Source: a virus
Taxonomy: Duplodnaviria > Heunggongvirae > Uroviricota > Caudoviricetes
IMG/VR virus record: IMGVR_UViG_2541047726_000007
Reading direction: 5' to 3' (one strand)
DNA length: 23,312 bases
In this document: piece by piece, positions 6,042 to 23,312 of the stretch
How positions within the stretch are numbered: the stretch's first letter is position 1
Layout of the letters: each line of letters starts with the position of its first letter
Program-made: the position numbers and the translations under genes
Notes under the pieces: model-generated
Told to the model about the DNA's origin: nothing
The model's database searches: none
What the model saw: only the letters and a program-made list of their open reading frames with translations

Positions 6042-6102
6042 CTTTCATTAATCCCTGAATTGTTGGTTAATACGCTTGAGGGTGAATGCGAATAATAAAA
6101 AA

Positions 6103-6117: not shown

Positions 6118-6139
6118 CTGATGATTTTGCTTTTCATGT

Positions 6140-6435: not shown

Positions 6436-6623
6436 ACCTGGTCTCTCTCATCTGCTTCTGCTTTCGCCACCATCATTTCCAGCTTTTGTGAAAGGGATGT
6501 GGCTAACGTATGAAATTCTTCGTCTGTTTCTACTGGTATTGGCACAAACCTGACTCCAATTTGAGCAAGGCTATGTGCCATCTCAATACTCGTTCTTAAC
6601 TCAACAGGAGATGCTTTGTGCAT
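6432..6623 (-). CDS. Lambda orf63-like small protein (63 aa)
   Basis: Same position and size as the small ORFs left of exo in lambda. Confidence 0.55.
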   Translation of the reverse strand: MHKASPVELRTSIEMAHSLAQIGVRFVPIPVETDEEFHTLATSLSQKLEMMVAKAEADERDQV

Positions 6624-6778
6624 ACCGCCTCCCGTTTATTATTTATCTTCTCAGCCAGCCGCTGTGCTTTCAGTGGATTTCTGATAACAGAAAGGCCGGG
6701 AAATACCCAGCCTCGCTTTGTAACGGAGTAGACGAAAGTGATCGCGCCTACCCGGATATTATCGTGAGGATGCGTCAT
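6596..6778 (-). CDS. Lambda orf60a-like small protein (60 aa)
   Basis: ATG at 6776-6778 overlaps the exo stop (ATGA); an alternative start lies 2 codons upstream. Confidence 0.5.
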
Positions 6779-7455
6779 CGCCATTGCTCCCCAAATACAA
6801 AACTAATTTCAGCCAGTGCCTCGTCCATTTTTTCGATGAACTCCGGCACCATCTCGTCAAAACTCGCCATGTACTTTTCATCCCGCTCAACCACGACATA
6901 ATGCAGTCCTTCACGCTTCATACGCGGGTCATAGTTGGCAAAGTACCAGGCATCTTTTCGCGTCACCCACATGCTGTACTGCACCTGGGCCATGTAAGCC
7001 GATTTTATGGCCTCGAAACCACCGAGCCGGAACTTCATGAAATCCCGGGAGGTAAACGGGCATTTCAGCTCAAGGCCGTTGCCGTCACTGCATAAACCAT
7101 CGGGAGAGCAGGCGGTGCGCATACTTTCGTCGCGATAGATGATCGGGGATTCAGTAACATTCACGCCGGAAGTAAACTCAAACAGGGCTCTGGCGTCGTT
7201 CTCGTACTGTTTTCCCCAAGCCAGCGCCTTAGCGTTAACTTCCGGAGCCACACCGGTGCAAACCTCAGCAAGCAGGGTGTGGAAGTAGGACATTTTCATG
7301 TCAGGCCATTTCTTTCCGGAGCGGGGTTTTGCTATCACGTTGTGAACTTCTGAAGCGGTGATGACGCCGAGCCGTAATTTGTGCCATGCATCATCCCCCT
7401 GTTCGACAGCTCTCACGTCGATCCCGGTACGCTGCAGGATAATGTCCGGTGTCAT
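6775..7455 (-). CDS. exo: Lambda exonuclease (Red alpha)
   Basis: 226-aa product near-identical to remembered lambda Exo. Confidence 0.95.
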
Positions 7456-8237
7456 GCTGCCACCTTCTGCTCAGTGGCTTTCTGTTTCAGGAATCCAAGA
7501 GCTTTCACTGCTTCGGCCTGTGTCAGTTCTGACGATGCGCGAATGTCGCGGCGAAATATCTGGGAACAGAGCGGCAATAAGTCGTCATCCCATGTTTTAT
7601 CCAGGGCGATCAGCAGAGTGTTAATCTCCTGCATGGTTTCATCGTTAACCGGAGTGATGTCGCGTTCCGGCTGACGTTCTGCAGTGTATGCGGTATTTTC
7701 GACAATGCGCTCGGCTTCATCCTTGTCATAGATACCAGCAAATCCGAAGGCGAGACGGGCACACTGAATCATGGCTTTATGCCGTAACATCCGTTTGGGA
7801 TGCGACTGCCACGGCCCCGTGATTTCTCTGCCTTCGCGGGTTTTGAATGGTTCGCGGCGGCATTCATCCATCCACTCGGTAACGCAGATCGGATGATTGC
7901 GGTCTTTGCGGTAAATCCGGCATGTACATGATTCATTGTCCTGCTCAAAGTCCATACCATCAAACTGCTGGTTTTCATTGATGATGCGGGACCAGCCATC
8001 AACGCCCACCACCGGAACAATGCCGTTCTGCTTATCAGGGAAGGCGTAAATTTCTTTCGTCCACGGATTAAGGCCGTACTGGTTGGCGACGATCAACAAT
8101 GCGATGAACTGCGCATCGCTGGCATCACCTTTAAATGCCGTCTGGCGAAGAGTGGTGATCAGTTCCTGTGGGTCGACAGAATCCATGCCGACACGTTCAG
8201 CCAGCTTCCCTGCCAGCGTTGCGAGTGCTGTACTCAT
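7452..8237 (-). CDS. bet: Recombinase Bet (Red beta), single-strand annealing protein
   Basis: 261-aa product near-identical to remembered lambda Bet; overlaps exo by 4 nt. Confidence 0.95.
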
Positions 8238-8242
8238 CCGTT

Positions 8243-8539
8243 TTATACCTCTGAATCAATATCAGCCTGATGGTGAGCAATGGTTTCAACTATGTACCGG
8301 ATGTGTTCTGCCATGCGCTCCTGAAACTCAACATCGTCATCAAACGCACGGGTAATGGCTTTTTTGCTGGCCCCGTGGCGTTGTAAATGATCGATGCATA
8401 GCGATTCAAACAGGTGCTGGGGCAGGCCTTTTTCCATGTCGTCTGCCAGTTCTGCCTCTTTCTCTTCACGGGCGATCTGCTGGTAGTGACGCGCCCAGCT
8501 CTGAGCCTCAAGACGATCCTGAATGTAATAAGCGTTCAT
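8243..8539 (-). CDS. gam: Gam (RecBCD inhibitor), 98-aa GamS form
   Basis: [21 protein letters not shown]...; AGGAG ribosome-binding site upstream. Confidence 0.9.
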
Positions 8540-8614
8540 GGCTGAACTCCTGAAAATGGCTGTGAAAATATCGCCCGCGAAATGCCAGGCTGATTAGGAA
8601 AACAGGAAAGGGGG

Positions 8615-8758
8615 TTAGTGAATGCTTTTGCTTGATCTCAGTTTCAGTATTAATATCCATTTTTTATAAGCGTCGACGGCCTCACGAAACATCTTTTCAT
8701 CGCCAATAAAAGTGGCGATAGTGAATTTAGTCTGGATAGCCATAATTGTTTGATCCAT
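8615..8758 (-). CDS. kil: Kil (host-killing / cell-division inhibitor), 47 aa
   Basis: [47 protein letters not shown] is lambda Kil-like; start lies inside the 3' end of cIII. Confidence 0.75.
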
Positions 8759-8891
8759 TTTTTGGGACTCCTGGCTGATTAAGTATGTCGATAAGGCGTT
8801 TCCATCCGTCACGTAATTTACGGGTGATTCGTTCAAGTAAAGATTCGGAAGGGCAGCCAGCAACAGGCCACCCTGCAATGGCATATTGCAT
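8727..8891 (-). CDS. cIII: CIII (FtsH inhibitor that stabilises CII), 54 aa
   Basis: Hand translation gives [54 protein letters not shown]; TAAGGAG site upstream; below the ORF-track cut-off. Confidence 0.75.
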   Translation of the reverse strand: MQYAIAGWPVAGCPSESLLERITRKLRDGWKRLIDILNQPGVPKNGSNNYGYPD

Positions 8892-8963
8892 GGTGTGCTC
8901 CTTATTTATACATAACGAAAAACGCCTCGAGTGAAGCGTAATTGGTATGCGGTAACGCCGCGC

Positions 8964-9332
8964 TCAGGCGGCCTTGATAGTCATATCATCTGAATCAAAT
9001 ATTCCTGATGTATCGATATCGGTAATTCTTATTCCTTCACTACCATCCATTGGAGGCCATCCTTCCTGACCATTTCCATCATTCCAGTCGAACTCACACA
9101 CAACACCATATGCATTTAAGTCGCTTGAAATTGCTATAAGCAGAGCATGTTGCGCCAGCATGATTAATACAGCATTTAATACAGAGCCGTGTTTATTGAG
9201 TCGGTATTCAGAGTCTGACCAGAAATTATTAATCTGGTGAAGTTTTTCCTCTGTCATTACGTCATGGTCAATTTCAATTTCTATTGATGCTTTCCAGTCG
9301 TAATCAATGATGTATTTTTTGATGTTTGACAT
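8964..9332 (-). CDS. ea10: Ea10-like protein (122 aa)
   Basis: Position between cIII and ral and the same length as lambda Ea10. Confidence 0.65.
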   Translation of the reverse strand: MSNIKKYIIDYDWKASIEIEIDHDVMTEEKLHQINNFWSDSEYRLNKHGSVLNAVLIMLAQHALLIAISSDLNAYGVVCEFDWNDGNGQEGWPPMDGSEGIRITDIDTSGIFDSDDMTIKAA

Positions 9333-9352
9333 CTATTCATATCCTCATAGAT

Positions 9353-9378
9353 AAAAAATCGCCCTCACACTGGAGGGC
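9353..9378 (-). terminator. Candidate intrinsic terminator between ral and ea10
   Basis: Minus strand: GCCCUCcagugu-GAGGGC followed by GAUUUUUUAUCU. Confidence 0.5.
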
Positions 9379-9514
9379 AAAGAAGATTTCCAATAATCAG
9401 AACAAGTCGGCTCCTGTTTAGTTACGAGCGACATTGCTCCGTGTATTCACTCGTTGGAATGAATACACAGTGCAGTGTTTATTCTGTTATTTATGCCAAA
9501 AATAAAGGCCACTA

Positions 9515-9715
9515 TCAGGCAGCTTTGTTGTTCTGTTTACCAAGTTCTCTGGCAATCATTGCCGTCGTTCGTATTGCCCATTTATCGACATATTTCCCAT
9601 CTTCCATTACAGGAAACATTTCTTCAGGCTTAACCATGCATTCCGATTGCAGCTTGCATCCATTGCATCGTTTGAATTGTCCACACCATTGATTTGTATC
9701 AATAGTCGTAGTCAT
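9515..9715 (-). CDS. ral: Ral (restriction alleviation), 66 aa
   Basis: MTTTIDTNQWCGQFKRCNGCKLQSECMVKPEE... is lambda Ral-like. Confidence 0.8.
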   Translation of the reverse strand: MTTTIDTNQWCGQFKRCNGCKLQSECMVKPEEMFPVMEDGKYVDKWAIRTTAMIARELGKQNNKAA

Positions 9716-9785
9716 ACGGATAGTCCTGGTATTGTTCCATCACATCTTGAGGATGCTCTTCGAACTCTTCAAATTCTTCTTCCAT
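9699..9785 (-). CDS. Small acidic protein (28 aa, MEEEFEEFEEHPQDVMEQYQDYPYDYDY), lambda orf28 position
   Basis: AAGGTG site 5 nt before the ATG; overlaps the ral start; below the ORF-track cut-off. Confidence 0.4.
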   Translation of the reverse strand: MEEEFEEFEEHPQDVMEQYQDYPYDYDY

Positions 9786-9928
9786 ATATCACCTTAAATA
9801 GTGGATTGCGGTAGTAAAGATTGTGCCTGTCTTTTAACCACATCAGGCTCGGTGGTTCTCGTGTACCCCTACAACGAGAAATCGGATAAACTCTATTCAC
9901 CCCTACAGAGAGCAAAAGAGAAACGCCG

Positions 9929-10510
9929 ATGAACAACTCATGGTGGCAGGAACTAATGCATTTTTTCCTGCAAGGAATGACACTTAAACAGTTGATTCAT
10001 ATGCTAATCATCCTGATCATATTGATTATTGTTATGCCGGTAAGCGTAAAAGAATGGATAAACCTGCATAGTCCAGAAATCCTTCCTCATTACTGGATGT
10101 ATTACATCCTGTTGTTTTGCGTTAGCTATGTGCTTAACGGCGTTGTTAATTCCGCTTATCACGCTGTGACTGAAAGAATTGAGGTATTCGCTGCTCAGAA
10201 GCGCAAATCTAAAGAAGAAAAATATGTGCAAGATTTGTTTGATTCGTTAACTCTTGGAGAAAGAGCGTATTTGGCATTCGCTGTAGCCGCTAATAACCAG
10301 CTACAAACGGAAAAGGGCGCTCATGAATCAATTTCATTGCTCAAAAAAGGACTCCTCGTTCGAAGGCCTCCTGCTGTTGGATATCCTGATACCGACCGTT
10401 TCGTTATCCCTGAAAGCTATAGACATGAGTGCTACATTAGGTTTGCCGGGAAGGCAGACAGCCTTATGGATGAACTTATCGCTCAGGATAAGCATGGCAA
10501 AAACAAGTAA
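9929..10510 (+). CDS. sieB: Superinfection exclusion protein B (membrane protein)
   Basis: 193-aa product with hydrophobic N-terminal helices, lambda SieB-like; transcribed opposite to the pL operon as in lambda. Confidence 0.85.
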   Translation: MNNSWWQELMHFFLQGMTLKQLIHMLIILIILIIVMPVSVKEWINLHSPEILPHYWMYYILLFCVSYVLNGVVNSAYHAVTERIEVFAAQKRKSKEEKYVQDLFDSLTLGERAYLAFAVAANNQLQTEKGAHESISLLKKGLLVRRPPAVGYPDTDRFVIPESYRHECYIRFAGKADSLMDELIAQDKHGKNK

Positions 10511-10526
10511 TTAGCAAATGAATTTA

Positions 10527-10799
10527 TCATCTCGCCGTCAGTTGTTTTGATTTCCGGTAGCCTGCCGCGTAAAGAGCTACGTTCGGAAGACAAGTTGAAC
10601 CTTCATATTTTCTGGTCAACGTTGTCAGAGTTATCACTTCTGCTCTCATTGCTGGTTTGAGCTTGCATTGCAAGACCACTCGTGAAGGGGTTGGCCTGTG
10701 TAGCTTGTCGGAGCTGATCGCCTCCTGACTTTGCAGATTTGCGCGACGAGCTCTACGGCGAGAAGCTGCGGTGCCTTTAAATTCTGTTTTTCTGGACAT
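10527..10799 (-). CDS. N: N-like transcription antiterminator (90 aa) with an arginine-rich motif, not lambda N
   Basis: N-terminal GTAASRRRARRA motif; first gene downstream of pL/nutL; GGAGG site before the ATG at 10797-10799. Confidence 0.7.
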   Translation of the reverse strand: MSRKTEFKGTAASRRRARRANLQSQEAISSDKLHRPTPSRVVLQCKLKPAMRAEVITLTTLTRKYEGSTCLPNVALYAAGYRKSKQLTAR

Positions 10800-10824
10800 G
10801 GATTCCTCCCGAATAAACTTTGGC

Positions 10825-10871
10825 GATGCAATCTCGAAGCTCCTCCTGAGACGGTTGCTTCGGCATTGCAT
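10825..10871 (-). promoter_or_regulatory. Long imperfect hairpin in the N leader (candidate RNase III site / translational control element)
   Basis: 15-nt arms GATGCAATCTCGAAG and CTTCGGCATTGCATC (2 mismatches) separated by 17 nt, 26 nt upstream of the N start. Confidence 0.4.
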
Positions 10872-10897
10872 CCCACAGCTTATGTGGTTGGGTGATC

Positions 10898-10942
10898 TGG
10901 CTTTTCAGCCACGTAGTCGAGAGTCGACGTTGTTTAAAGAGC
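10898..10942 (-). promoter_or_regulatory. nutL candidate: boxA (GCTCTTTAA), spacer hairpin, boxB (UGGCU-GAAA-AGCCA)
   Basis: boxA-like nonamer and a GAAA-loop hairpin on the minus strand between pL and N; same architecture as the nutR candidate. Confidence 0.5.
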
Positions 10943-10984
10943 CTGCCAGTCTGTTCCATTTGGCTTCCAGCGTCCTGCTGACGG

Positions 10985-11020
10985 TTAAATAGTACGATAT
11001 GTACTTTACAAGATCAATAC
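10985..11020 (-). promoter_or_regulatory. pL/oL candidate (TTGATC-17-TACTAT with an embedded AGTACATATCGTACT palindrome)
   Basis: Sigma-70-like hexamers about 36 nt upstream of boxA; the palindrome resembles motifs in the cI-cro intergenic region. Confidence 0.35.
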
Positions 11021-11199
11021 AATTTGTTGTAAGTTGGCGTGGTTTTTTATAACGCTTTGTATTTAATAGTGTTGTTTTTTAGCGTGGATGTATTGCCTCG
11101 GCGATGTAAGGAGAGATCAGAATTGCGTGGTTTAGTGGGTTGCATCTATTTATTTTTCAATAAATATAATTGGTTATGTGTTTTTAGGTGGGCGAACGT

Positions 11200-11232
11200 G
11201 AGGCAAAGAAAACCCGGCGCTGAGGCCGGGTT
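11200..11232 (-). terminator. Intrinsic terminator ending the cI-geneA-geneB operon
   Basis: Perfect 8-bp stem AACCCGGC/GCCGGGTT with a 6-nt loop, followed on the minus strand by UUUUCUUUG, 3 nt after the gene B stop. Confidence 0.7.
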
Positions 11233-11235
11233 GTA

Positions 11236-11988
11236 TTATGCTGCAAGTCTCTTAACCCAAGTCTCTCTTTTGGAGAATGGTAGAACTTGGCTTGATTCAT
11301 GGAAGAGTAAGGAGAGTTGTTGCATTTGATCACCAATTGCTTCGCTGTCTATAACAACAAATCTGTTGTTATACTCCTCACTTGAAGCTTTAAGATCAAT
11401 TAGTTTCCCAAGCAATGAGTAAGCACTATTCCAGCTTCCTCCGTGTTTCACGCTTGATGTAAAAACGTATTTAGGTATGTCGGTTTTTATTGTTACAGGG
11501 ACGGTAATTTGATGTCCACTCAAGCCATATACGTTTTCACGAAGAGAAAGTGCGTCTCTAAGCTCTGTGTGATATAGATAATCAATAACCATACTTTCAA
11601 ACTTTTCAGCTTGAACTGGCTGATACCAGTCTAACGACAAAGTTGATGCGAGTATACCAGCTCTAATTATGTTCGATGTAATCGCACCGACATCCTTTTC
11701 TGTTGCCCAAGCAATGATTTCTCCTCGAGCATTGAGTTCTGCGCCTTCTTTAAGCAGTAATTGTCGTATCTCATCAAGTCGTTTTTTGGTAAGCGAGATC
11801 CCTCTTGCCTCCATATTCATTAAGGCATCGCATCTGTCACTAACTAAATACCTACCATTGACTTCACGGATAAAGGCACCGACATGCTCTCCATCATCAC
11901 AGTAAGTGAATGGACTGATAATTCTCAAGGTCTTGCCTATTGGATGGCATTCGAAACCTAGTTGTGAGATCACTGTTGAGCACATCAT
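11236..11988 (-). CDS. Hypothetical protein, rex-position cassette gene B (250 aa)
   Basis: Long ORF whose ATG overlaps the gene A stop (ATGA); AT-rich; no transmembrane segments evident. Confidence 0.7.
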   Translation of the reverse strand: MMCSTVISQLGFECHPIGKTLRIISPFTYCDDGEHVGAFIREVNGRYLVSDRCDALMNMEARGISLTKKRLDEIRQLLLKEGAELNARGEIIAWATEKDVGAITSNIIRAGILASTLSLDWYQPVQAEKFESMVIDYLYHTELRDALSLRENVYGLSGHQITVPVTIKTDIPKYVFTSSVKHGGSWNSAYSLLGKLIDLKASSEEYNNRFVVIDSEAIGDQMQQLSLLFHESSQVLPFSKRETWVKRLAA

Positions 11989-12542
11989 ATTCCAAACCCC
12001 ATTTGCCCCGACTCATCTTCAAGCGGTAAAGGTATTCTCCCAGAGTAAGTTATGTTCAGATGTTTACAGAAGTAATTCCAATACCCTACCAGGTCATCTG
12101 GGTTTATGTCATCTTCGATTGGAAACGCTATTCTATCACTATAGTATCCAGCTTCTTCATAGTATACATGGTAGTGAGCACCGTAAATGATATCTTGGTA
12201 CTTCGGATGATCGACCTTGTAACTATTCGTGTGTTTGTCAAAGTGATAGGTATCTACCGCGAAAACCCTCTTGTTATGATAGAAAGCAATAATATTTATT
12301 TTAGGGTAAGAAATCGGGTCATCAGGTTCTGAATCCTGATCTGGTTTCCATTTCAGTTCAAACTTTAGCCCTTGTATAGGTATACAATCCTCATCCAAGG
12401 GGATGATATGGGCTTGTAGCCACATATCAGAGCGACTTGGTTTCTGTTTCCATTTAACGCCAGAAAAGTTAACTATTTTTTTACAATAAAGTACTTTATC
12501 AACTTCTACTTGGCTTGGCTGATAATCATCTATTTTTGCCAA
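11985..12542 (-). CDS. Hypothetical protein, rex-position cassette gene A (185 aa; TTG start, uncertain)
   Basis: ORF 39 nt downstream of cI; AT-rich; Tyr/His/Asp-rich, no recognisable motif. Confidence 0.6.
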   Translation of the reverse strand: MAKIDDYQPSQVEVDKVLYCKKIVNFSGVKWKQKPSRSDMWLQAHIIPLDEDCIPIQGLKFELKWKPDQDSEPDDPISYPKINIIAFYHNKRVFAVDTYHFDKHTNSYKVDHPKYQDIIYGAHYHVYYEEAGYYSDRIAFPIEDDINPDDLVGYWNYFCKHLNITYSGRIPLPLEDESGQMGFGI

Positions 12543-12581
12543 TGTTTACCGCCCTGTAAATTGTAGATAAAAGTGGTTTCA

Positions 12582-13235
12582 TCACCCAAACGTCTCTTCA
12601 GGCCATTGGCTGGCGATAACTTTCCCCACAACGGAACAACTCTCATTGCATGGGATCATTGGGTATTGTGGGTTTAGTGGCTGTAGAAACACCTGACCGC
12701 TATCCCTGATCAGTTTCTTGAAGGTAAATTCATCACCACCAAGTCTGGCTATGCAGAAATCGCCGGGCTCAACAGCTTGCTCAGGGTCAACCAGAATTAA
12801 CATCCCGTCAGGAAAGCTGGGTTTGGAACCTGTTGGTGCGGTCATTGAGTTACCTTCAACCTCAAGCCAGAATGCAGAGTCACTGGCTTTTTTGGTTGTG
12901 CTTACCAATCTCTCCGCATCGCCTTTGGTAAAGGTTCTGAGTTCTGGAGAGAACATCCCAGCCTGAACATGAGAAAAAACAGGGTACTCATATTGTTTTT
13001 TAACTGGGGCCGATGAGTATTCGCCAACAGGTGAAAATGTCCCGTCGTGGTTGAATGATATGTTATCAATACCAAGGTATTTAAACACCACACCAATATC
13101 ACTAAGAGATGGATGACGAGATCCGCGCAACCAGTGTCCAATCCCACCCTGCGTCATACCTAGCTCTTCGGCTAACTTCTCTTGAGTTATGCCGAGCTCT
13201 TTCATTCTGGATCTAGCCAGTTCATACCATTTCAT
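12582..13235 (-). CDS. cI: CI repressor, chimeric: lambda-type C-terminal domain with a non-lambda HTH N-terminal domain
   Basis: C-terminal about 130 aa match remembered lambda cI ([13 protein letters not shown]...[10 protein letters not shown]); the N-terminus differs; start taken as ATG 13233-13235 (an ATG two codons upstream is also possible). Confidence 0.85.
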
Positions 13236-13352
13236 TTTCATGTCCTTATTATTACGCTCTGTACTGGAACCATCCATGCACAATGTGTATTTTTACTTGT
13301 ATTCGCAAAGTACATATTGTATTTTTTTATTCGTGTTTACTATGGAGGGCAT
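13236..13352. promoter_or_regulatory. Divergent pRM/pR operator-promoter region (oR candidate)
   Basis: AT-rich 117-bp spacer between divergent cI and cro with several imperfect palindromes containing GTAC/TGTA half-sites. Confidence 0.5.
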
Positions 13353-13568
13353 ATGAGCAACCTACGAAAATATCGAGAGTCACTGAATATCTCTCAAACA
13401 ACACTTGCTAAGGCAGTTGGATGCACACAGGGAGCTATCGGACATTGGGAATCTGGTCGTCGCTTCCCAGACCTTAAAACATGCCGTGCTCTTGTTGCGT
13501 GCCTAAACAAGTTAGGCGCAAAAGTCAGTCTTGATGACGTGTTCCCGCCGGAACACAAAGCCGCTTAA
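13353..13568 (+). CDS. cro: Cro-like HTH repressor (71 aa), non-lambda
   Basis: HTH motif (QTTLAKAVGCTQGAIGHWESG); GGAGGG site before the ATG; divergent from cI. Confidence 0.8.
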   Translation: MSNLRKYRESLNISQTTLAKAVGCTQGAIGHWESGRRFPDLKTCRALVACLNKLGAKVSLDDVFPPEHKAA

Positions 13569-13578
13569 TAAGCGGATC

Positions 13579-13624
13579 CGCTCTTTGTAACAACGGACAT
13601 TCGTCCTACGTCGCTGAAAAGCGA
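13579..13624 (+). promoter_or_regulatory. nutR candidate: boxA (CGCTCTTTG), spacer hairpin, boxB (UCGCU-GAAA-AGCGA)
   Basis: Located just after the cro stop; mirrors the nutL candidate. Confidence 0.5.
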
Positions 13625-13709
13625 GTTCCAAGATATCTGACCAACTAAGGCCATATGCGTTTCCACGCATACCTTTCAACTAACTATTCACTATTGGAAA
13701 TCTTAAGAA

Positions 13710-14006
13710 ATGGAAAGAACAAGTTACAGCAAACTATCACAGCGTGACGTTGATCGCGCAGAAACAGATTTACTTATCAATCTGTCAGCTATTACCCAGC
13801 GCGGTCTGGCAAAGATGATTGGCTGTCATGAATCGAAGATAAGCAGAACGGACTGGAGATTTATTGCTTCGGTCTTGTGTGCTTTCGGAATGGCATCAGA
13901 CATCAGTCCGATTAGCAGGGCTTTTAAGTATGCGCTTGATGGACTCACCAATAAAAAACGCCCGGCGGCAACCGAGCGTTCTGAACAAATCCAGATGGAA
14001 TTCTGA
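13710..14006 (+). CDS. cII: CII transcriptional activator, chimeric: lambda-like C-terminus, divergent N-terminus
   Basis: The C-terminal TNKKRPAATERSEQIQMEF matches lambda CII. Confidence 0.75.
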   Translation: MERTSYSKLSQRDVDRAETDLLINLSAITQRGLAKMIGCHESKISRTDWRFIASVLCAFGMASDISPISRAFKYALDGLTNKKRPAATERSEQIQMEF

Positions 14007-14028
14007 GGTCATTACTGGATCAATCCAC
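13952..14028 (-). ncRNA. oop: OOP antisense RNA (about 77 nt) with its terminator
   Basis: Minus strand reads ...GTTGCCGCCGGGCGTTTTTTAT, matching the remembered lambda oop 3' end; antisense to the cII 3' end. Confidence 0.55.
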
Positions 14029-14038
14029 AGGAGTCATT

Positions 14039-14938
14039 ATGACAAATACAGCAAAAATACTCAACTTCTGCAGAGGTAACTTTGCCAAACAGGAGCGTAA
14101 TGTGGCAGATCTCGATGATGGTTACGCCAGACTATCAAATATGCTGCTTGAGGCTTATTCAGGCGCAGATCTGACCAAGCGACAGTTTAAAGTGCTGCTT
14201 GCCATTCTGCGTAAAACCTATGGATGGAATAAACCAATGGACAGAATCACCGATTCTCAACTTAGCGAGATTACAAAGTTACCCGTCAAACGGTGCAATG
14301 AAGCCAAGTTAGAACTCGTCAGAATGAATATTATCAAGCAGCAAGGCGGCATGTTTGGACCAAATAAAAACATCTCAGAATGGTGTATCCCTCAAAACGA
14401 GGGAAAATCCCCTAAAACGAGGGATAAAACATCCCTCAAATTGGGGGATTGCTATCCCTCAAAACAGGGGGACACAAAAGACACTATTACAAAAGAAAAA
14501 AGAAAAGATTATTCGTCAGAGAATTCTGGCGAATCCTCTGACCAGCCAGAAAACGACCTTTCTGTGGTGAAACCGGATGCTGCAATTCAGAGCGGCAGCA
14601 AGTGGGGGACAGCAGAAGACCTGACCGCCGCAGAATGGATGTTTGACATGGTGAAGACCATCGCGCCATCAGCCAGAAAACCGAATTTTGCAGGGTGGGC
14701 TAACGATATCCGCCTGATGCGTGAACGTGACGGACGTAACCATCGCGACATGTGTGTACTGTTCCGCTGGGCATGCCAGGACAACTTCTGGTCCGGTAAC
14801 GTGCTGAGCCCGGCCAAACTCCGCGACAAGTGGACCCAGCTCGAAATCAACCGTAACAAGCAACAGGCAGGTGTGACAGCCTGCAAACCAAAACTCGACC
14901 TGACAAACACTGACTGGATTTACGGGGTGGATTTATGA
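14039..14938 (+). CDS. O: Replication initiator O
   Basis: 299-aa lambda O-like product with the ori iterons inside the gene. Confidence 0.9.
   Translation: MTNTAKILNFCRGNFAKQERNVADLDDGYARLSNMLLEAYSGADLTKRQFKVLLAILRKTYGWNKPMDRITDSQLSEITKLPVKRCNEAKLELVRMNIIKQQGGMFGPNKNISEWCIPQNEGKSPKTRDKTSLKLGDCYPSKQGDTKDTITKEKRKDYSSENSGESSDQPENDLSVVKPDAAIQSGSKWGTAEDLTAAEWMFDMVKTIAPSARKPNFAGWANDIRLMRERDGRNHRDMCVLFRWACQDNFWSGNVLSPAKLRDKWTQLEINRNKQQAGVTACKPKLDLTNTDWIYGVDL
14386..14515. repeat. Replication origin: four iterons (ATCCCTCAAAACGAGGGA-like) plus an adjacent A/T-rich segment
   Basis: Four direct repeats of an about 18-bp inverted-repeat unit at 14386-14471, followed by ACAAAAGACACTATTACAAAAGAAAAAAGAAAAG. 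Confidence 0.85.
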
Positions 14939-15636
14939 AAAACATCGCCGCACAGATGGTTAATTTTGACCGTGAGCAGATGCGTCGGATCGCCAACAAC
15001 ATGCCGGAACAGTACGACGAAAAGCCGCAGGTACAGCAGGTAGCGCAGATCATCAACGGTGTGTTCAGCCAGTTACTGGCAACTTTCCCGGCGAGTCTGG
15101 CTAACCGTGACCAGAACGAACTGAACGAAATCCGCCGCCAGTGGGTTCTGGCTTTCCGGGAAAACGGGATCACCACAATGGAACAGGTTAACGCAGGAAT
15201 GCGCGTAGCCCGTCGGCAGAATCGACCATTTCTGCCATCACCCGGGCAGTTTGTTGCATGGTGCCGGGAAGAAGCATCCGTTATCGCCGGACTGCCAAAC
15301 GTCAGCGAGCTGGTTGATATGGTTTACGAGTATTGCCGGAAGCGAGGCCTGTATCCGGATGCAGAGTCTTATCCGTGGAAATCGAACGCGCACTACTGGC
15401 TGGTTACCAACCTGTACCAGAACATGCGGGCCAATGCGCTGACTGACGCGGAATTACGACGCAAGGCTGCCGATGAACTGACCTGTATGACAGCGCGAAT
15501 TAACCGTGGTGAGACGATACCTGAACCAGTAAAACAACTTCCTGTCATGGGCGGCAGACCTCTAAATCGTGTTCAGGCGCTGGCGAAGATCGCAGAAATT
15601 AAAGCTAAGTTAGGACTGAAAGGAGCAAGTGTATGA
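14935..15636 (+). CDS. P: Replication protein P (DnaB helicase loader)
   Basis: 233-aa lambda P-like product; overlaps the O stop. Confidence 0.9.
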   Translation: MKNIAAQMVNFDREQMRRIANNMPEQYDEKPQVQQVAQIINGVFSQLLATFPASLANRDQNELNEIRRQWVLAFRENGITTMEQVNAGMRVARRQNRPFLPSPGQFVAWCREEASVIAGLPNVSELVDMVYEYCRKRGLYPDAESYPWKSNAHYWLVTNLYQNMRANALTDAELRRKAADELTCMTARINRGETIPEPVKQLPVMGGRPLNRVQALAKIAEIKAKLGLKGASV

Positions 15637-15923
15637 CGGGCAAAGAGGCAATTATTCATTACCTGGGGACGCATAATAGCTTCTGTGCGCCGGACGTTGC
15701 CGCGCTAACAGGCGCAACAGTAACCAGCATAAATCAGGCCGCGGCTAAAATGGCACGGGCAGGTCTTCTGGTTATCGAAGGTAAGGTCTGGCGAACGGTG
15801 TATTACCGGTTTGCTACCAAGGAAGAACGGGAAGGAAAGATGAGCACGAACCTGATTTTTAAGGAGTGTCGCCAGAGTGCCACGATGAAACGGATATTGG
15901 CGGTATATGGAGTTAAAAGATGA
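15633..15923 (+). CDS. ren: Ren (rex exclusion protection), 96 aa
   Basis: Lambda Ren-like sequence and position. Confidence 0.8.
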   Translation: MTGKEAIIHYLGTHNSFCAPDVAALTGATVTSINQAAAKMARAGLLVIEGKVWRTVYYRFATKEEREGKMSTNLIFKECRQSATMKRILAVYGVKR

Positions 15924-15948
15924 CCATCTACATCACTGAGCTAATAAC

Positions 15949-15976
15949 AGGCCTGCAGGTAATCGCAGGCCTTTTT
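15949..15976 (+). terminator. Intrinsic terminator between ren and ninB (tR2-like)
   Basis: 8-bp stem AGGCCTGC/GCAGGCCT with an 8-nt loop, followed by TTTTTATTT. Confidence 0.7.
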
Positions 15977-15996
15977 ATTTGGGGGAGAGGGAAGTC

Positions 15997-16437
15997 ATGA
16001 AAAAACTAACCTTTGAAATTCGATCTCCGGCACATCAGCAAAACGCTATTCACGCAGTACAGCAAATCCTTCCAGACCCAACCAAACCAATCGTAGTAAC
16101 CATTCAGGAACGCAACCGCAGCTTAGACCAAAACAGGAAGCTATGGGCCTGCTTAGGTGACGTCTCTCGTCAGGTTGAATGGCATGGTCGCTGGCTGGAT
16201 GCAGAAAGCTGGAAGTGTGTGTTTACCGCAGCATTAAAGCAGCAGGATGTTGTTCCTAACCTTGCCGGGAATGGCTTTGTGGTAATAGGCCAGTCAACCA
16301 GCAGGATGCGTGTAAGCGAATTTGCGGAGCTATTAGAGCTTATACAGGCATTCGGTACAGAGCGTGGCGTTAAGTGGTCAGACGAAGCGCGACTGGCTCT
16401 CGAATGGAAAGCGCGATGGGGAGATCGGGCTGCATGA
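15997..16437 (+). CDS. ninB: NinB (Orf recombination mediator), 146 aa
   Basis: MKKLTFEIRSPAHQQNAIHAVQQILPDPTKPIVVTIQERNRSLDQNRKLWA... is lambda NinB-like. Confidence 0.85.
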   Translation: MKKLTFEIRSPAHQQNAIHAVQQILPDPTKPIVVTIQERNRSLDQNRKLWACLGDVSRQVEWHGRWLDAESWKCVFTAALKQQDVVPNLAGNGFVVIGQSTSRMRVSEFAELLELIQAFGTERGVKWSDEARLALEWKARWGDRAA

Positions 16438-16961
16438 CTATCAAATCAAATACGCCAGCACACGACAAGGACTGCTGGCAAACGCCGCTTTGGCTTTTTG
16501 ATGCACTGGATATTGAGTTTGGATTCTGGCTGGATTCGGCAGCGAGCGACAAAAATGCTCTGTGCGCTCACTGGCTAACTGAGGACGACGACGCGCTCAA
16601 TTCTGAGTGGGTAAGCCACGGTGCAATCTGGAATAACCCACCGTACAGCAATATCAGGCCGTGGGTGGAAAAAGCCGCTGAGCAGTGTATACAACAGCGA
16701 CAGACGGTAGTGATGCTTGTGCCAGAGGATATGTCTGTCGGATGGTTCAGCAAGGCTCTGGAGAGTGTTGACGAAGTTCGTATTATCACTGATGGACGGA
16801 TTAATTTTATCGAACCATCGACAGGGCTGGAGAAGAAGGGAAACAGCAAAGGCTCCATGCTGCTGATTTGGCGACCGTTCATCAGTCCTCGACGGATGTT
16901 TACTACCGTATCCAAAGCGGCATTGATGGCGATCGGGCAGGGCGTCAGGAGGGCTGCATGA
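16434..16961 (+). CDS. Orphan DNA N6-adenine methyltransferase (phage Dam-like), 175 aa
   Basis: NPPY catalytic motif ([10 protein letters not shown]); ATGA overlaps with ninB and ninE. Confidence 0.75.
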
Positions 16962-17134
16962 GACGACAGCGACGAAGCATCACCGACATAATCTGCGAAA
17001 ACTGCAAATACCTTCCAACGAAACGCTCCAGAAATAAACGCAAGCTAATCCCAAAAGAATCTGACGTAAAAACCTTCAATTACACAGCCCACCTGTGGGA
17101 TATCCGGTGGCTAAGATATCGTGCGAGGAAATGA
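16958..17134 (+). CDS. ninE: NinE, 58 aa
   Basis: [23 protein letters not shown]...[13 protein letters not shown] is lambda/DLP12 NinE-like. Confidence 0.75.
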
Positions 17135-17478
17135 CAATGGATTATTCACAGTTAAGTGATTTTGAAATTAACAGAATGGTAGGAGACATAATTTTTAAAG
17201 GCCTTTGGGCAAGTAAACCGGAAACATCAGGGAATAACACCAACAAATGGTATTACGGAAATGCTGATACAACTTTTGAGCCATTAAATCATTTGCCTGA
17301 CTACTGCAATGATCCGAGCGCTTCATGGCCGATTATTGAGAAATACAGGATTTCTATCTTAGACCAGTTAACTGAATGGTGTGTGGATGCAAAAGGCGTA
17401 AGCCCAATATTTGATACCAGACCTCTCCGCGCCGCCATGATTGTCTTTCTCCTGATGCAGGAGGCCAATAATGCTTAG
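17131..17478 (+). CDS. Hypothetical nin-region protein (115 aa)
   Basis: ATGA overlap with ninE; GAGGAA ribosome-binding site. Confidence 0.6.
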
Positions 17479-17665
17479 CCCATCTCAATCCCTTCAATAC
17501 CTGAAAGAAAGCATAGAGCGGGCTTCAATGTGCACAGAGTGGATTCTATCTAGGTTTAGCGCATACAGAAGATTGCCGGTAAAGGGCATGCCAAGCAAGT
17601 CGATGCTGCATATGCAAAAGAATGCGCGCTGGAAGGTATGGCGAGAACACAGGTTATGTGGCTGA
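17471..17665 (+). CDS. NinF-like small protein (64 aa; N-terminus NinF-like, C-terminus divergent)
   Basis: N-terminal [10 protein letters not shown] matches remembered NinF; the rest does not. Confidence 0.45.
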
Positions 17666-17684
17666 AAGAGGGGGTTATTAAGGC

Positions 17685-18047
17685 GTGAATACCTACAGCA
17701 TCACATTACCCTGGCCTCCGAGCAATAATCGCTATTACCGCCATAATCGCGGGCGCACGCACGTCAGCGCAGAGGGGCAGGCATACCGCGATAACGTCGC
17801 CCGAATCATTAAAAACGCAATGCTGGATATCGGCCTGGCTATGCCTGTGAAAATCCGCATTGAGTGCCACATGCCGGATCGCCGTCGCCGTGACCTGGAT
17901 AATCTGCAAAAAGCCGCTTTTGACGCACTCACTAAAGCAGGTTTCTGGCTGGATGATGCTCAGGTCGTTGATTACCGCGTTGTGAAGATGCCTGTTACCA
18001 AAGGTGGGAGGCTGGAACTGACCATCACCGAAATGGGGAATGAATGA
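17685..18047 (+). CDS. rusA: Holliday junction resolvase RusA
   Basis: 120-aa product matching remembered E. coli DLP12 RusA. Confidence 0.9.
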
Positions 18048-18184
18048 TGTTTGAGTTTAATATGGCAGAACTTCTTCGCCACCGCTGGGGGCGTCTGCGC
18101 TTATATCGTTTCCTCGGTTCTGTTTTGACCGATTACCGAATACTGAAGAATTACGCCAAAACCCTGACAGGAACAGGAGTATGA
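18044..18184 (+). CDS. Small protein in the ylcG position (46 aa)
   Basis: [23 protein letters not shown]...; ATG overlaps the rusA stop; below the ORF-track cut-off. Confidence 0.5.
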
Positions 18185-18269
18185 AGTCAGAGATAACAAT
18201 CAACTAATACTGTTTTGTTGATTTTTGCTTGTAATTGGCGTTCTGGTCTGATTTTTGTGGAGTAAGTTG

Positions 18270-18653
18270 ATGCGTGATATTCAGATGGTTCTTGAGCGTT
18301 GGGGTGCGTGGGCGGCTAATAATCATGAAGATGTGACCTGGTCGTCCATTGCCGCCGGTTTTAAGGGATTAATTCCTTCAAAAGTAAAATCTCGCCCGCA
18401 ATGTTGTGACGATGACGCGATGATCATTTGCGGGTGCATGGCCCGTCTGAAAAAGAACAACAGCGATTTACACGATTTATTAGTAGATTATTATGTATGT
18501 GGTATGACATTCATGTCACTGGCAAGTAAGCATTGCTGCTCGGATGGTTATATCGGGAAAAGGTTACAGAAGGCTGAGGGCATAATTGAAGGGATGTTAA
18601 TGGCATTAGATATCCGGTTAGATATGGATATCGTTGCTAATAATTCTAATTGA
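18270..18653 (+). CDS. Q: Late-gene antiterminator Q (DLP12 QuuD / phage 21-82 type), 127 aa
   Basis: [24 protein letters not shown]... matches remembered QuuD; GGAG site before the ATG at 18270. Confidence 0.8.
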
Positions 18654-18679
18654 TATGCAATTGTTTACTAAAAGTTATT

Positions 18680-18703
18680 AAAAATGGGGCGTGGAAACGC
18701 CCC
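18680..18703 (-). terminator. GC-rich hairpin with a minus-strand U-tract (possible nmpC terminator or pR'-proximal structure)
   Basis: GGGGCG-uggaaa-CGCCCC; the minus strand continues AUUUUUAAU. Confidence 0.35.
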
Positions 18704-18790
18704 CAAAATAAAGGGTAATATATAACAGAAGGTTTATATAGTAAGAAGCAAGGTAGTGCTTCTAAAGGAAGTGGCTTGAGGGCTCCACTT

Positions 18791-18830
18791 ATATGTTGCG
18801 GAGGCAAAGCCTCCCGCAACATATCTTTTT
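18791..18830 (+). terminator. Intrinsic terminator downstream of Q (tR'-like), convergent with the nmpC 3' end
   Basis: About 15-bp stem ATATGTTGCGGAGGC / GCCTCCCGCAACATAT, then CTTTTTCG. Confidence 0.55.
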
Positions 18831-18841
18831 CGTAAGTCAGA

Positions 18842-19924
18842 TTAGAACTGATAAACCAGACCTACAGCGACGATGTCGTCGGTATCAATACCAGCTGTTT
18901 TGGTAAACTTACTATCGTCAATTAAGTTGATTTTGTAATCAACAAAAGTGGACATGTTTTTATTAAAGTAGTAAGTAGCACCGACATCGACATACTTGAC
19001 TAAGTCTCGGTCACCATGAACACCAAGGTCTTTACCTTTTGACTGAAGGTAAGCAACAGATGGACGCAGACCGAAGTCAAACTGATATTGTGCTACTGCT
19101 TCAAAGTTTTGTGCTTTGTTTGCAATATGGTTATTACCAAAAACGGTCATATTCTGAGTTTCAGAATATGTGGTAGCCAGATAGATATTGTTCGCATCAT
19201 ATTTCAGGCCTGCAGCCCATACTTCCGCATTTTTGCCGGAGGCATTGAATTTGCTCTTACCATAGGCGACCTGACCGTCAGTGCGATCTGATTTAGCATA
19301 GGTTGCACCCACGCCGAATCCTTCATACTCATAAGTAGTGGAGAAACCGAAACCATCACCATTGGCTTCAGTTACGTCAGTGCGGTCATTTTTACCCTGA
19401 TACTGAGCAGCAAAGTTCAGGCCATCGACCAGACCAAAGAAGTCGTTGTTACGATAAGTTGCAACACCAGTAGTGCGACCAGTCATGAACACATCTGTTT
19501 GGGTCCAGGTATCACCACCGAATTCTGGCAGAACGTCAGTCCACGCACCGATGTCGTATGCTACACCGTAGTTACGGCCGTAATCGATTGAGCCGTAATC
19601 ACCAAATTTCAGGCCTGCAAATGCAAGACGGGTTTTGTCTTTGGAAGAACCTTGAGATTCAGCACGGTTGCCTTTGAATTCATATTCCCACTGACCGAAA
19701 CCAGTCAGTTGATCGTTGATTTGGGTTTCACCTTTGAAGCCAAGACGGGCATAAGTAGTATCACCATCATCTGCATCATTAGAGGAGAAGTAGTGCTTGG
19801 CATTAACTTTCCCGTATAGATCCAGCTTGTTACTGTCTTTATTATAAATTTCAGCTGCCTGAGCAGACATCGCCATCAGTACTGATGCAGCTACAGCAGA
19901 AATTGCCACTGTTAATTTTTTCAT
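18842..19924 (-). CDS. nmpC: Outer-membrane porin, OmpC/OmpF family (NmpC / Lc-type lysogenic-conversion porin), intact
   Basis: Signal peptide [23 protein letters not shown] followed by porin beta-barrel features and a C-terminal ...VGLVYQF. Confidence 0.9.
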
Positions 19925-20350
19925 TGTACGCCCTTTTTTTGAACTTTTATTAAAAAATGATGTCACTGCGCGATAAATATTCATCTAATCAATGTGATTA
20001 TTTCAAGATGTAAGTTTTAGTTTCTCATTTAATTTGTGAAGTAGATCTCTATTTTTATCTGAACCTTTTCTATCTAATCCTATTCATGGCTCTTGTCTGA
20101 ACAAAAATAAATCTATTAGCTAATTTATATTAATGGCACTTATTTATAAGTGCTCTATAATTCTTTAGCTTAATTTAAACAAACTAAAAATAACATCGGA
20201 AATTATTAACTGGTTATTTGTTGAAGTTTTCTTATGCATTTGTGGTGGTGTTTTGAACACTCGGTGGCATTCTCACAAATATCATTTAGTAGTTTACGTA
20301 CGTAAAAAATTGGTTATGCTGTTAAGAGTGGTTACTTCGTCACACAGCTT

Positions 20351-20383
20351 AAACCCGCCGTCGAGCGGGTTTTTCCATTTTTT
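20351..20383 (+). terminator. Intrinsic terminator in the nmpC-holin intergenic region
   Basis: AAACCCGC-cgtcga-GCGGGTTT followed by TTCCATTTTTTG. Confidence 0.7.
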
Positions 20384-20512
20384 GAGTCTCGATATTAGCT
20401 GATAACCCAATACCTGAGTTATTCACTGACTCCGAATCTGTTACGTTTCTGCCTTTATTGCGATACGTAGTATCCCCTTAATTTACACCCGCTTTGTCTG
20501 CGAGGTGGGGTT

Positions 20513-20728
20513 ATGAAATCCATGGATAAGTTAACAACGGGTGTCGCCTATGGTACCTCAGCAGGTAGTGCCGGGTACTGGTTTTTACAGTTGCTCGATA
20601 AAGTCACGCCCTCACAGTGGGCGGCAATAGGTGTGCTGGGTAGCCTGGTATTTGGCCTGCTGACGTACCTGACAAACCTTTATTTCAAGATTAAAGAAGA
20701 TAAGCGCAAGGCTGCGAGAGGTGAATAA
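20513..20728 (+). CDS. S: Class II holin (phage 21 S-type pinholin) with MKSM dual-start motif
   Basis: 71-aa product with two transmembrane segments, S21-like; GAGGTGGGG site upstream. Confidence 0.85.
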
Positions 20729-21225
20729 TGCCTCCATCATTACGAAAAGCCGTTGCTGCTGCTATTGGTGGCGGAGCAATTGCTATAGCATCAGTGTTAA
20801 TCACTGGCCCAAGTGGTAACGATGGTCTGGAAGGTGTCAGCTACATACCATACAAAGATATTGTTGGTGTATGGACTGTATGTCACGGGCATACAGGAAA
20901 AGACATCATGCTCGGTAAAACGTATACCAAAGCAGAATGCAAAGCCCTCCTGAATAAAGACCTTGCCACGGTCGCCAGACAAATTAACCCGTACATCAAA
21001 GTCGATATACCGGAAACAATGCGCGGCGCTCTTTACTCATTCGTTTACAACGTGGGTGCTGGCAATTTCAGAACATCGACGCTTCTTCGCAAAATAAACC
21101 AGGGCGATATCAAAGGCGCATGTGATCAGCTACGTCGCTGGACATATGCTGGCGGTAAGCAATGGAAAGGTCTCATGACTCGTCGTGAGATTGAGCGTGA
21201 AATCTGTTTGTGGGGTCAGCAATGA
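20728..21225 (+). CDS. R: SAR endolysin (phage 21 R-type lysozyme with N-terminal signal-anchor-release domain)
   Basis: Gly/Ala-rich N-terminal weak transmembrane domain followed by a lysozyme-like region; 165 aa. Confidence 0.85.
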
Positions 21226-21683
21226 ACAGAGTAACCGCGATTATCTCCGCTCTGGTTATCTGCATCATCGTCTGCCTGTCATGGGCTGTTAATCATTACC
21301 GTGATAACGCCATTACCTACAAAGCCCAGCGCGACAAAAATGCCAGAGAACTGACGCTGGCGAACGCGGCAATTACTGACATACAGATGCGTCAGCGTGA
21401 TGTTGCTGCGCTCGATGCAAAATACACGAAGGAGTTAGCTGATGCGAAAGCTGAAAATGATGCTCTGCGTGATGATGTTGCCGCTGGTCGTCGTCGGTTG
21501 CACATCAAAGCAGTCTGTCAGTCAGTGCGTGAAGCCACCACCGCCTCCGGCGTGGATAATGCAGCCTCCCCCCGACTGGCAGACACCGCTGAACGGGATT
21601 ATTTCACCCTCAGAGAGAGGCTGATCACTATGCAAAAACAACTGGAAGGAACCCAGAAGTATATTAATGAGCAGTGCAGATAG
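21222..21683 (+). CDS. Rz: Spanin inner-membrane subunit Rz
   Basis: N-terminal transmembrane helix and coiled-coil-like region; ATGA overlap with R; 153 aa. Confidence 0.8.
21442..21624 (+). CDS. Rz1: Spanin outer-membrane lipoprotein Rz1, embedded in Rz in the +1 frame
   Basis: Lipobox LVVVGC and a proline-rich mature region. Confidence 0.75.
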
Positions 21684-21706
21684 AGCTGCCCGGTAATGAC
21701 TCCAAC

Positions 21707-22210
21707 TTATTGATAGTGTTTTATGTTCAGATAATGCCCGATGACTTTGTCATGCAGCTCCACCGATTTTGAGAACGACAGCGACTTCCGTCCCAGCCGT
21801 GCCAGGTGCTGCCTCAGATTCAGGTTATGCCGCTCAATTCGCTGCGTATATCGCTTGCTGATTACGTGCAGCTTTCCCTTCAGGCGGGATTCATACAGCG
21901 GCCAGCCATCCGTCATCCATATCACCACGTCAAAGGGTGACAGCAGGCTCATAAGACGCCCCAGCGTCGCCATAGTGCGTTCACCGAATACGTGCGCAAC
22001 AACCGTCTTCCGGAGCCTGTCATACGCGTAAAACAGCCAGCGCTGGCGCGATTTAGCCCCGACGTATCCCCACTGTTCGTCCATTTCCGCGCAGACGATG
22101 ACGTCACTGCCCGGCTGTATGCGCGAGGTTACCGACTGCGGCCTGAGTTTTTTAAATGGCGGAAAATCGTGTTGAGGCCAACGCCCATAATGCGGGCGGT
22201 TGCCCGGCAT
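21707..22210 (-). CDS. insB: IS1 InsB reading frame (expressed as InsAB' by frameshift)
   Basis: 167-aa ORF overlapping insA, IS1 InsB-like. Confidence 0.85.
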
Positions 22211-22404
22211 CCAACGCCATTCATGGCCATATCAATGATTTTCTGGTGCGTACCGGGTTGAGAAGCGGTGTAAGTGAACTGCAGTTGCCATGTTTTACGG
22301 CAGTGAGAGCAGAGATAGCGCTGATGTCCGGCGGTGCTTTTGCCGTTACGCACCACCCCGTCAGTAGCTGAACAGGAGGGACAGCTGATAGAAACAGAAG
22401 CCAC
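22129..22404 (-). CDS. insA: IS1 InsA
   Basis: 91-aa product with zinc-finger and HTH features, matching remembered InsA. Confidence 0.85.
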
Positions 22405-22459
22405 TGGAGCACCTCAAAAACACCATCATACACTAAATCAGTAAGTTGGCAGCATCACC

Positions 22460-22731
22460 CAGGCTTGTATGTTAATAGCGCAGCGACAGATGTATTTGCA
22501 GAGAAAACCACATTTGGATGTATTGCAAAAGCTGATGGTCACTTTCATGTGGTGACAAATGGTAAAGCGGTTAATGAAGTTTATTGTGAATATAATGGTG
22601 TGACCGCTGATAAAAATATCCGATTTGGAGGGCAGACGAATACTGGAGAACGACATCTGTTTGGCCATATTCGCAATTTCCGCATATGGCATAAAGAATT
22701 AAATGACAGGCAATTAAAAGAGGTCGTATGA
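22460..22731 (+). pseudogene. 3' fragment of a gene truncated by IS1; C-terminus resembles a LamG/concanavalin-like domain
   Basis: The frame is open from the IS1 boundary; ends ...LFGHIRNFRIWHKELNDRQLKEVV. Confidence 0.4.
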
Positions 22732-23006
22732 AAGATTTAACTTTGAAGTTTCATGACAAACTGCAGTTTAAGGCCTTCCTGTCATCTCTTGACTGGGAGG
22801 AGGATGAAGACCTCCAGAATAAACTGTTAGTCGATGAAATTGGTTTCACCTACACAGAAACAGGGGTAACAGAAGAGGGAGAACCTGTCTGTGTCCGGAA
22901 TGACGGTTATTTTGTCAACATTCGCATTCTTGATGACTTGTTTGATGTTTCTGTATTCTCTGATTATGTCGTGGAGCTGGAAACACCGCTTCGGGAATGG
23001 AGCTGA
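22728..23006 (+). CDS. Hypothetical acidic protein (92 aa)
   Basis: ATGA overlap with the upstream fragment; no recognisable motif. Confidence 0.5.
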   Translation: MKDLTLKFHDKLQFKAFLSSLDWEEDEDLQNKLLVDEIGFTYTETGVTEEGEPVCVRNDGYFVNIRILDDLFDVSVFSDYVVELETPLREWS

Positions 23007-23018
23007 AAGGAGGAAATA

Positions 23019-23312
23019 ATGGATATAAGCCCCTTACTTCATGCGCTTTGTGCTGTGGCTGCGCAGATACTGGTTGGTCTTTTTACCGGAAACTGGGCTT
23101 ACGGAGCGATAGCCGGTTGTACGTTCTTCATTGCGCGTGAACATACCCAGGCAGAATATCGCTGGATTGAAATGTTCGGGCATGGCAAGCGAATGAATAT
23201 GCCGTGGTGGGGCGGTTTTGATCCGCGAGCTTGGGATGTGGCAAGCCTGATGGATTTTGCTGTGCCGGTGGTGGCGTGTCTGCTGGTCTGGCTGTTGGTT
23301 AATCGTGGGTGA
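23019..23312 (+). CDS. Hypothetical small membrane protein (97 aa)
   Basis: GGAGG site upstream; predicted transmembrane segments at both ends; stop at the window end. Confidence 0.5.
   Translation: MDISPLLHALCAVAAQILVGLFTGNWAYGAIAGCTFFIAREHTQAEYRWIEMFGHGKRMNMPWWGGFDPRAWDVASLMDFAVPVVACLLVWLLVNRG

Follow-up and report, generated by a model that had tools for sequence, protein, structure and literature searches.

A 23,100-bp late-region deletion with an intact IS1 at its joint in a phage-21-like prophage of Escherichia coli HVH 68

Results

Origin and gene content of the window

The stretch of DNA analysed here in full, referred to as the window (23,312 nucleotides), is a phage-21-like lambdoid prophage integrated at icd in E. 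coli HVH 68 (4-0888028), a clinical isolate available as the draft assembly GCA_000456965.1. Positions 1-15823 of the window align to scaffold KE699391.1 of this assembly (204,364 bp) with 100% identity, at an offset of 16,951 positions, and a full-length icd (a 416-aa Iso_dh gene) directly beside int on that scaffold places the prophage at icd. The window extends from the stop codon of the integrase to the gene for a 97-aa membrane protein that precedes sitD in related prophages, and between them it holds xis, exo-bet-gam, kil, cIII, N, cI, cro, cII, O, P, the nin region, Q, a porin gene and a lysis cassette of the S21 type. The integrase is of the phage 21 type, 380 aa in length, with arm-binding and catalytic domains (Pfam), and the first 2,057 bp of the window, int included, show 97.4% DNA identity to phage 21. 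Judging by its relatives, the HVH 68 prophage would be of the sitABCD-carrying type, with the sit genes lying outside the window, and a continuation into sitDCBA and attR is expected to its right.

Comparison with phage genomes, followed by local alignment, provided an intact relative as the reference, Escherichia phage ev017 (NC_049948.1, 50,126 bp, genus Jouyvirus), a deposited phage genome for which a text search of the literature returned no relevant match. Like phage 21 (OL657228.1), ev017 is a lambdoid phage whose b region contains sitABCD and whose attachment site lies in icd. Arranged as a prophage, the gene order of ev017 is int...Rz (ending at 48122), bor, a TonB-like gene, the record end and start (cos), terminase, head, tail, J, stf (19316-21376), orf92, orf97, sitDCBA and attP. 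Three alignments relate the window to it:

Window 1-4155: ev017 27693-31847, 100% identity
Window 5406-21691: ev017 31845-48130, one mismatch
Window 22460-23312: ev017 21105-21957, 100% identity

Outside its two insertion elements the window thus differs from ev017 by 1 mismatch over 21.3 kb. This sole base difference lies at window position 21549, with G here and A in ev017; Rz thus has Gly in the window and Ser in ev017, whereas the protein sequence of the embedded Rz1 does not change. The Rz allele of the window is the widespread one, found in 6544 blocks of the collection. PhiR57_1, a phage record with ECOR13 as its listed host, is 100% identical to window 1-21691 once the inserted element in that part is left out.

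Features upstream of the lysis cassette include a second insertion element, an RNA thermoregulator and the porin gene:

4156-5405: second insertion element, 1250 bp, IS3 family, IS911-like, inside an ea22-like gene; PGAP assigns identical copies to the ISEc52 family
8846-8904, minus strand: lambda cIII thermoregulator RNA at the start of cIII (Rfam RF01804, 88.5 bits against a gathering score of 50)
18842-19984, minus strand: OmpC/NmpC-type porin gene between Q and the lysis cassette, in antisense orientation (Pfam Porin_1, E=2e-151)

The second element is flanked by a perfect 3-bp duplication, TAC, at 4153-4155 and 5406-5408. The chimeric Ea22 fragments that it creates (EQP40211.1 and EQP40208.1) occur on one contig only in the protein collection. 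Insertion elements are also found in related chromosomal prophages with intact late regions: four of these contain an IS3-family element within replication gene O (contig positions ~1500-3700), and in another an IS21-family element together with ISEc52 copies replaces the immunity and replication region (contig positions 1000-6700).

The lysis cassette and the left flank of IS1

The lysis cassette is complete and is followed by a short piece of intergenic DNA:

20513..20728, plus strand: phage-21-type holin (S21/EssD-like), intact (Pfam PF04971, E=2e-35; 100% identical to ev017)
20728..21225, plus strand: endolysin (R21/RrrD-like lysozyme), intact (Pfam PF00959, E=1.3e-45; 100% identical to ev017)
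21222..21683, plus strand: Rz i-spanin, 153 aa, intact (Pfam PF03245, E=7.6e-54)
21442..21624, plus strand: Rz1 o-spanin lipoprotein embedded in Rz, intact (Pfam PF06085, E=2.9e-20)
21684..21691: remnant of the Rz-bor intergenic spacer, 8 nt, AGCTGCCC, ending at the left deletion breakpoint (ev017 48130)

The stop codon of Rz, TAG, occupies 21681-21683, and IS1 begins at 21692, just 8 nt further on, as an earlier note made from the sequence of this DNA had described. The breakpoint is sharp. In 9/9 chromosomal relatives, which are 99.8-100% identical to the window over the shared stretches, the match ceases at exactly 21691, and the 8/9 whose DNA reaches far enough continue with bor and then TonB_C, Nu1, terminase and portal genes, while the contig of the ninth ends just past bor. 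A look-up of Rz in the collection returned only relatives with an intact region. In ev017 the left breakpoint falls within a hairpin between Rz and bor (48122-48150; TGCCCAT-ATCG-ATGGGCA, with a 7-bp core stem and -15 kcal/mol), which is probably a bidirectional terminator between the two convergent genes.

The IS1 element

The segment that follows the spacer remnant is a complete IS1:

21692..22459, minus strand: complete IS1 (IS1R type), 768 bp, with 23-nt imperfect terminal inverted repeats
22129..22404, minus strand: insA, 91 aa, GTG start (Pfam PF03811 and PF12759)
21707..22210, minus strand: insB' frame, the DDE domain of the InsAB' transposase (Pfam PF03400, E=2.3e-78)

The inverted repeats at 21692-21714 and 22437-22459 are 78% complementary. 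The element is identical at 768/768 positions to the copies of plasmids R100 and pHCM1, as it is to those of many other resistance plasmids, and at 761/768 positions to IS1A of K-12, with 7 differences. The A6C motif for the -1 frameshift and the 232-aa InsAB' reading frame are both intact, and from its sequence the element looks fully functional. It is the only copy of IS1 in the window.

Length, inverted repeats, reading frames and sequence identity all place the element in the IS1 family; what is lacking is the target duplication of 8-10 bp, most often 9 bp, that a simple insertion leaves. Re-examination of the direct flanks for any k=2-14 revealed no target-site duplication, so that the difference between the flanking 9-mers reported earlier (GAGCTGCCC versus CAGGCTTGT) stands, and the 20-nt flanks do not have a single 5-mer in common. 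Accordingly, the ev017 alignments abut IS1 without overlap, unlike the 3-bp overlap found at the second element. The latter serves as an internal control within the same window, with the normal duplication of a simple insertion.

The right flank of IS1

Beyond IS1 the window resumes in the middle of a gene, a point on which the earlier note was likewise correct:

22460..22731, plus strand: 3' remnant of the side-tail-fiber gene, 272 nt, the last 89 full codons and the stop codon, starting at the right deletion breakpoint (ev017 21105)
22728..23006, plus strand: hypothetical gene, 92 aa, located behind stf in intact relatives (100% identical and in the same order in ev017 gp22 and phage 21 CPT_21_23)
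23019..23312, plus strand: putative membrane protein of 97 aa, whose gene directly precedes sitDCBA in relatives (ev017 gp23, phage 21 CPT_21_24)

The stf remnant begins at nt 1790 of the 2061-nt gene of ev017, in codon 597 of 686, and is 100% identical both to ev017 21105-21376 and to the phage 21 side tail fiber CPT_21_22. A match to Laminin_G_3 within it is weak and lies below the curated cut-off. Exact protein look-ups with the reading frames called in the remnant (88 aa from TTG, 60 and 59 aa from GTG, 84 aa in antisense) returned only unrelated short contigs or none. In ev017, phage 21 and E. coli ATCC 11775 the gene after the 97-aa frame is sitD. The region from 21684 to 22731 that the earlier note had singled out therefore consists of the 8-nt spacer, IS1 and the tail-fiber remnant.

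The 3' part of stf also drew attention in other strains. In E. coli 2-005-03_S4 strains an IS1 variant of ~90% identity abuts the same stf at ev017 21023, 82 bp upstream of the HVH 68 breakpoint, and an IS3-family element follows at ev017 21421, which points to independent, recurrent erosion of the stf 3' locus by insertion elements. The type strain ATCC 11775 contains the same prophage, collinear with ev017 9105-27630 with 44 mismatches and no gaps; its stf is annotated just as an N-terminal pseudogene fragment (record 10212-12268) and was probably broken by a point mutation. Two public metagenome and Logan contigs with the tail-fiber 3' end start with an untrimmed Nextera adapter (…AGATGTGTATAAGAGACAG; contig positions 1-35 and 1-17) and not with IS1, which is contamination and no biological junction.

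Extent of the deletion

The flanks of IS1 correspond to ev017 48130, where the left one ends, and 21105, where the right one starts; they share one orientation, and the order of the prophage is preserved. The interval missing between them is (50126-48130)+21104 = 23,100 bp: a deletion has removed a block of this size, with a single intact IS1 precisely at the joint. Lost with it are ev017 gp69-gp73, gp01-gp20 and the first 1789/2061 nt (87%) of gp21, and in terms of function bor, the TonB-like gene, cos, terminase, all head and tail genes, J and the 5' part of stf. Note that the assignment of cos to the deleted interval follows from its presumed location at the ends of the ev017 record. Microhomology between the breakpoints was not found.

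As stated in the earlier note, no bor, terminase, head or tail genes follow the lysis cassette within the window, and the comparison with intact relatives that it had recommended, in the form of ev017 and nine chromosomal prophages, shows that the late region is lost from position 21691 onward. Its interpretation as an IS1-mediated deletion or inversion holds for the deletion, with 23,100 bp missing with respect to ev017, and fails for the inversion, since an inversion would reverse the right flank and the two flanks are collinear. Simple insertion of IS1 with subsequent decay of the duplication was rejected in view of the 23 kb that separate the flanks in ev017, and a deletion into which IS1 inserted only later was rejected because it would leave a duplication.

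Searches for the junctions

In exact-match scans the right junction was absent from genome_contigs (GTDB representatives), from IMG/VR viral contigs and from metagenome contigs, and the left junction was absent from genome_contigs (GTDB representatives) and viral contigs. Searches of 5,426 complete E. coli genomes with the left, right and ISEc52 junctions found none of the three in any genome; 2 records covered the left-junction query, but just by the joining of two separate pieces. HVH 68 itself is a draft assembly and its junctions are for this reason missing from the complete genomes; as neither junction of the deletion occurs in any of them, the event is private to HVH 68. An insertion of IS1 into stf with a 9-bp duplication would, in either orientation, yield a Stf::IS1 precursor of 600 aa (Stf(1-599)+Trp), and this predicted protein was absent among ~15 billion proteins. 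The collection takes in the annotated proteins of GCA_000456965.1, and the absence is weak evidence that hinges on gene calling.

Discussion

Origin of the joint

Adjacent deletions promoted by IS1 are known classically from the gal region of E. coli K-12, and Reif and Saedler reportedly established IS1 in 1975 as the classical element for them. Applied to the HVH 68 prophage, an ordinary IS1 insertion would have occurred at one of the two breakpoints, and the IS1 transposase would then have directed an intramolecular transposition into the other one, with the outcome that the intervening DNA would be lost, IS1 would stay and no target duplication would remain. We regard the chances as about even that an adjacent deletion by IS1 made the joint. 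It is the favoured route because it needs one insertion and not two. Missing target duplications are usually put down to adjacent deletion or to recombination between insertion elements, and in long-term evolution lines 14/14 duplication-free IS150 deletions could be attributed to adjacent deletion by an element that had inserted beforehand (PMC11708052). The HVH 68 joint resembles IS1 adjacent deletions and the deletions of those lines in that the deletion starts from the exact end of the element, the element is kept, and neither duplication nor microhomology is present (PMC11708052); unlike in the evolution lines, the order of events in HVH 68 is deduced, and recombination of IS1 with IS1 is equally compatible with the joint.

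This recombination would require that IS1 had inserted twice in like orientation, behind Rz and within stf, with a 9-bp duplication at either site; RecA-dependent recombination between the two copies would then excise 23.1 kb and leave one hybrid IS1. It is the less probable origin, albeit one to be taken seriously, as it yields the exact structure observed: the two flanks would derive from different copies, the left from one and the right from the other, and a duplication would be absent. Insertion elements often strike this prophage family, and RecA-dependent deletions have reportedly been described by Fisher et al. in 2009 for the sit island of Shigella. Recombination between insertion elements is moreover a common cause of missing duplications (PMC11708052). 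Against it stand the two independent insertions of like orientation that must have occurred within 23 kb before the deletion, the single IS1 copy in the window, and the failure to find either the junctions in complete E. coli genomes or the Stf::IS1 precursor in the protein collection. As both routes leave the same joint, adjacent deletion and recombination between two directly repeated copies of IS1 look alike at the level of the sequence.

The source is a scaffold-level draft, in which the path across an IS1 repeat depends on the assembler, and if two IS1 copies flanked an intact late region, a short path from Rz through IS1 to the 3' end of stf would read just as the window does. Such an artefact is very improbable, however, for the 204 kb scaffold crosses repeats of 768 bp and 1250 bp free of gaps, and the 600-aa protein then expected is missing from a collection that includes this assembly, weak as this evidence is. 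Even less probable, to the point of being nearly negligible, is an inversion or translocation after which the late genes would persist elsewhere in the chromosome beside a second IS1. Intramolecular transposition of IS1 can give rise to inversions too, but the right flank retains its native orientation and its position relative to the left flank, and the segment beyond IS1 corresponds to the far 3' end of the late operon, in agreement with ev017, phage 21 and ATCC 11775. We infer that neither a second IS1 nor relocated late genes are to be found elsewhere in the genome.

A single step, in which the insertion of IS1 coincided with a large deletion or double-strand break or went into one, and the duplication was never made, would account for the lack of duplication, of microhomology and of a known precursor. 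It has been raised as an explanation (PMC11708052) and proposed for IS5 in E. coli C, but for IS1 it is a hypothesis only, the classical two-step routes fit the data equally well, and we consider it unlikely. We attach a similarly low, if slightly higher, probability to a more speculative pair of ideas: that a duplication-free IS1 insertion was coupled in one step to a 23-kb deletion or to break repair, as recently proposed for IS5 and IS481, in place of the classical two-step routes, and, separately, that what was selected is a 'domesticated' state that keeps sitABCD, immunity, the porin and an SOS-triggered lysis cassette without virion genes. Adjacent deletion remains the reading that we favour, and whichever route was taken, the deletion is recent, since the remnant is otherwise pristine and virtually identical to ev017, a phage recovered as virions.

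Relation to other prophages

The prophage shares its gene order, its 380-aa integrase and its integration at icd with ev017 and phage 21. With the latter it is 94-97% identical in the integrase, recombination, replication and lysis stretches and 100% identical in the 3' region of stf. It differs from both by the lack of the 23.1 kb from bor to the 5' part of stf, by the IS1 at the joint and by the 1250-bp IS3-family element in the ea22-like gene. The type of lysis cassette, the position of the porin gene between Q and the lysis genes, where phage 21 has two tRNA genes, and the loss of structural genes are also found in DLP12 of K-12 (porin-essD-rrrD-rzpD); matches annotated as essD, rrrD and rzpD show 98.6-98.8% identity, a figure that spans the lysis region and IS1. 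Prophage e14 of K-12 occupies the same integration site, icd, and has likewise lost its structural genes. Both DLP12 and e14 are thought to stem from the loss of late genes driven by insertion elements; unlike these old and heavily eroded prophages, the HVH 68 remnant is otherwise pristine.

In Shigella flexneri the sit genes are, reportedly according to Fisher et al. in 2009, part of a degraded prophage-like island that is rich in insertion elements, prone to deletion and said to have arisen in the same way. The present prophage, by contrast, comes from E. coli; its breakpoints differ from those of the island and are private to HVH 68, and the sit genes lie outside the window.

Functional consequences

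The genes int, xis, exo/bet/gam, cI/cro/cII, O/P, Q and S/R/Rz/Rz1 are 100% identical to those of ev017 except for the one substitution in Rz; the other exception to this identity is the accessory ea22-like gene, disrupted by the unrelated insertion element. From this gene content the remnant probably keeps immunity and can be induced, excise, replicate and lyse the cell, but it should be unable to build capsids or tails and would thus form no virions. As it lacks cos, it would not be packaged by a helper phage either. The suggestion of the earlier note that the prophage is defective for virion production while retaining immunity, recombination and lysis genes agrees with the gene content relative to ev017. 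With cos, terminase, head and tail genes lost and the regulatory genes kept, it is by gene content a defective lambdoid prophage.

The annotation of the HVH 68 prophage should therefore label it as defective, devoid of cos and of packaging, head and tail genes, and exact breakpoints as well as an intact reference, ev017, are now available for the deletion. Beyond annotation the significance is small, as the joint is private to HVH 68 and the kind of event is a textbook one and nothing new. It does present a clean and very recent case of prophage decay driven by an insertion element in the family of sit-carrying, icd-integrated lambdoid prophages that is common in extraintestinal pathogenic E. 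coli. Moreover, SOS induction of such a remnant could kill the host without producing phage, a small and testable point for the domestication of prophages.
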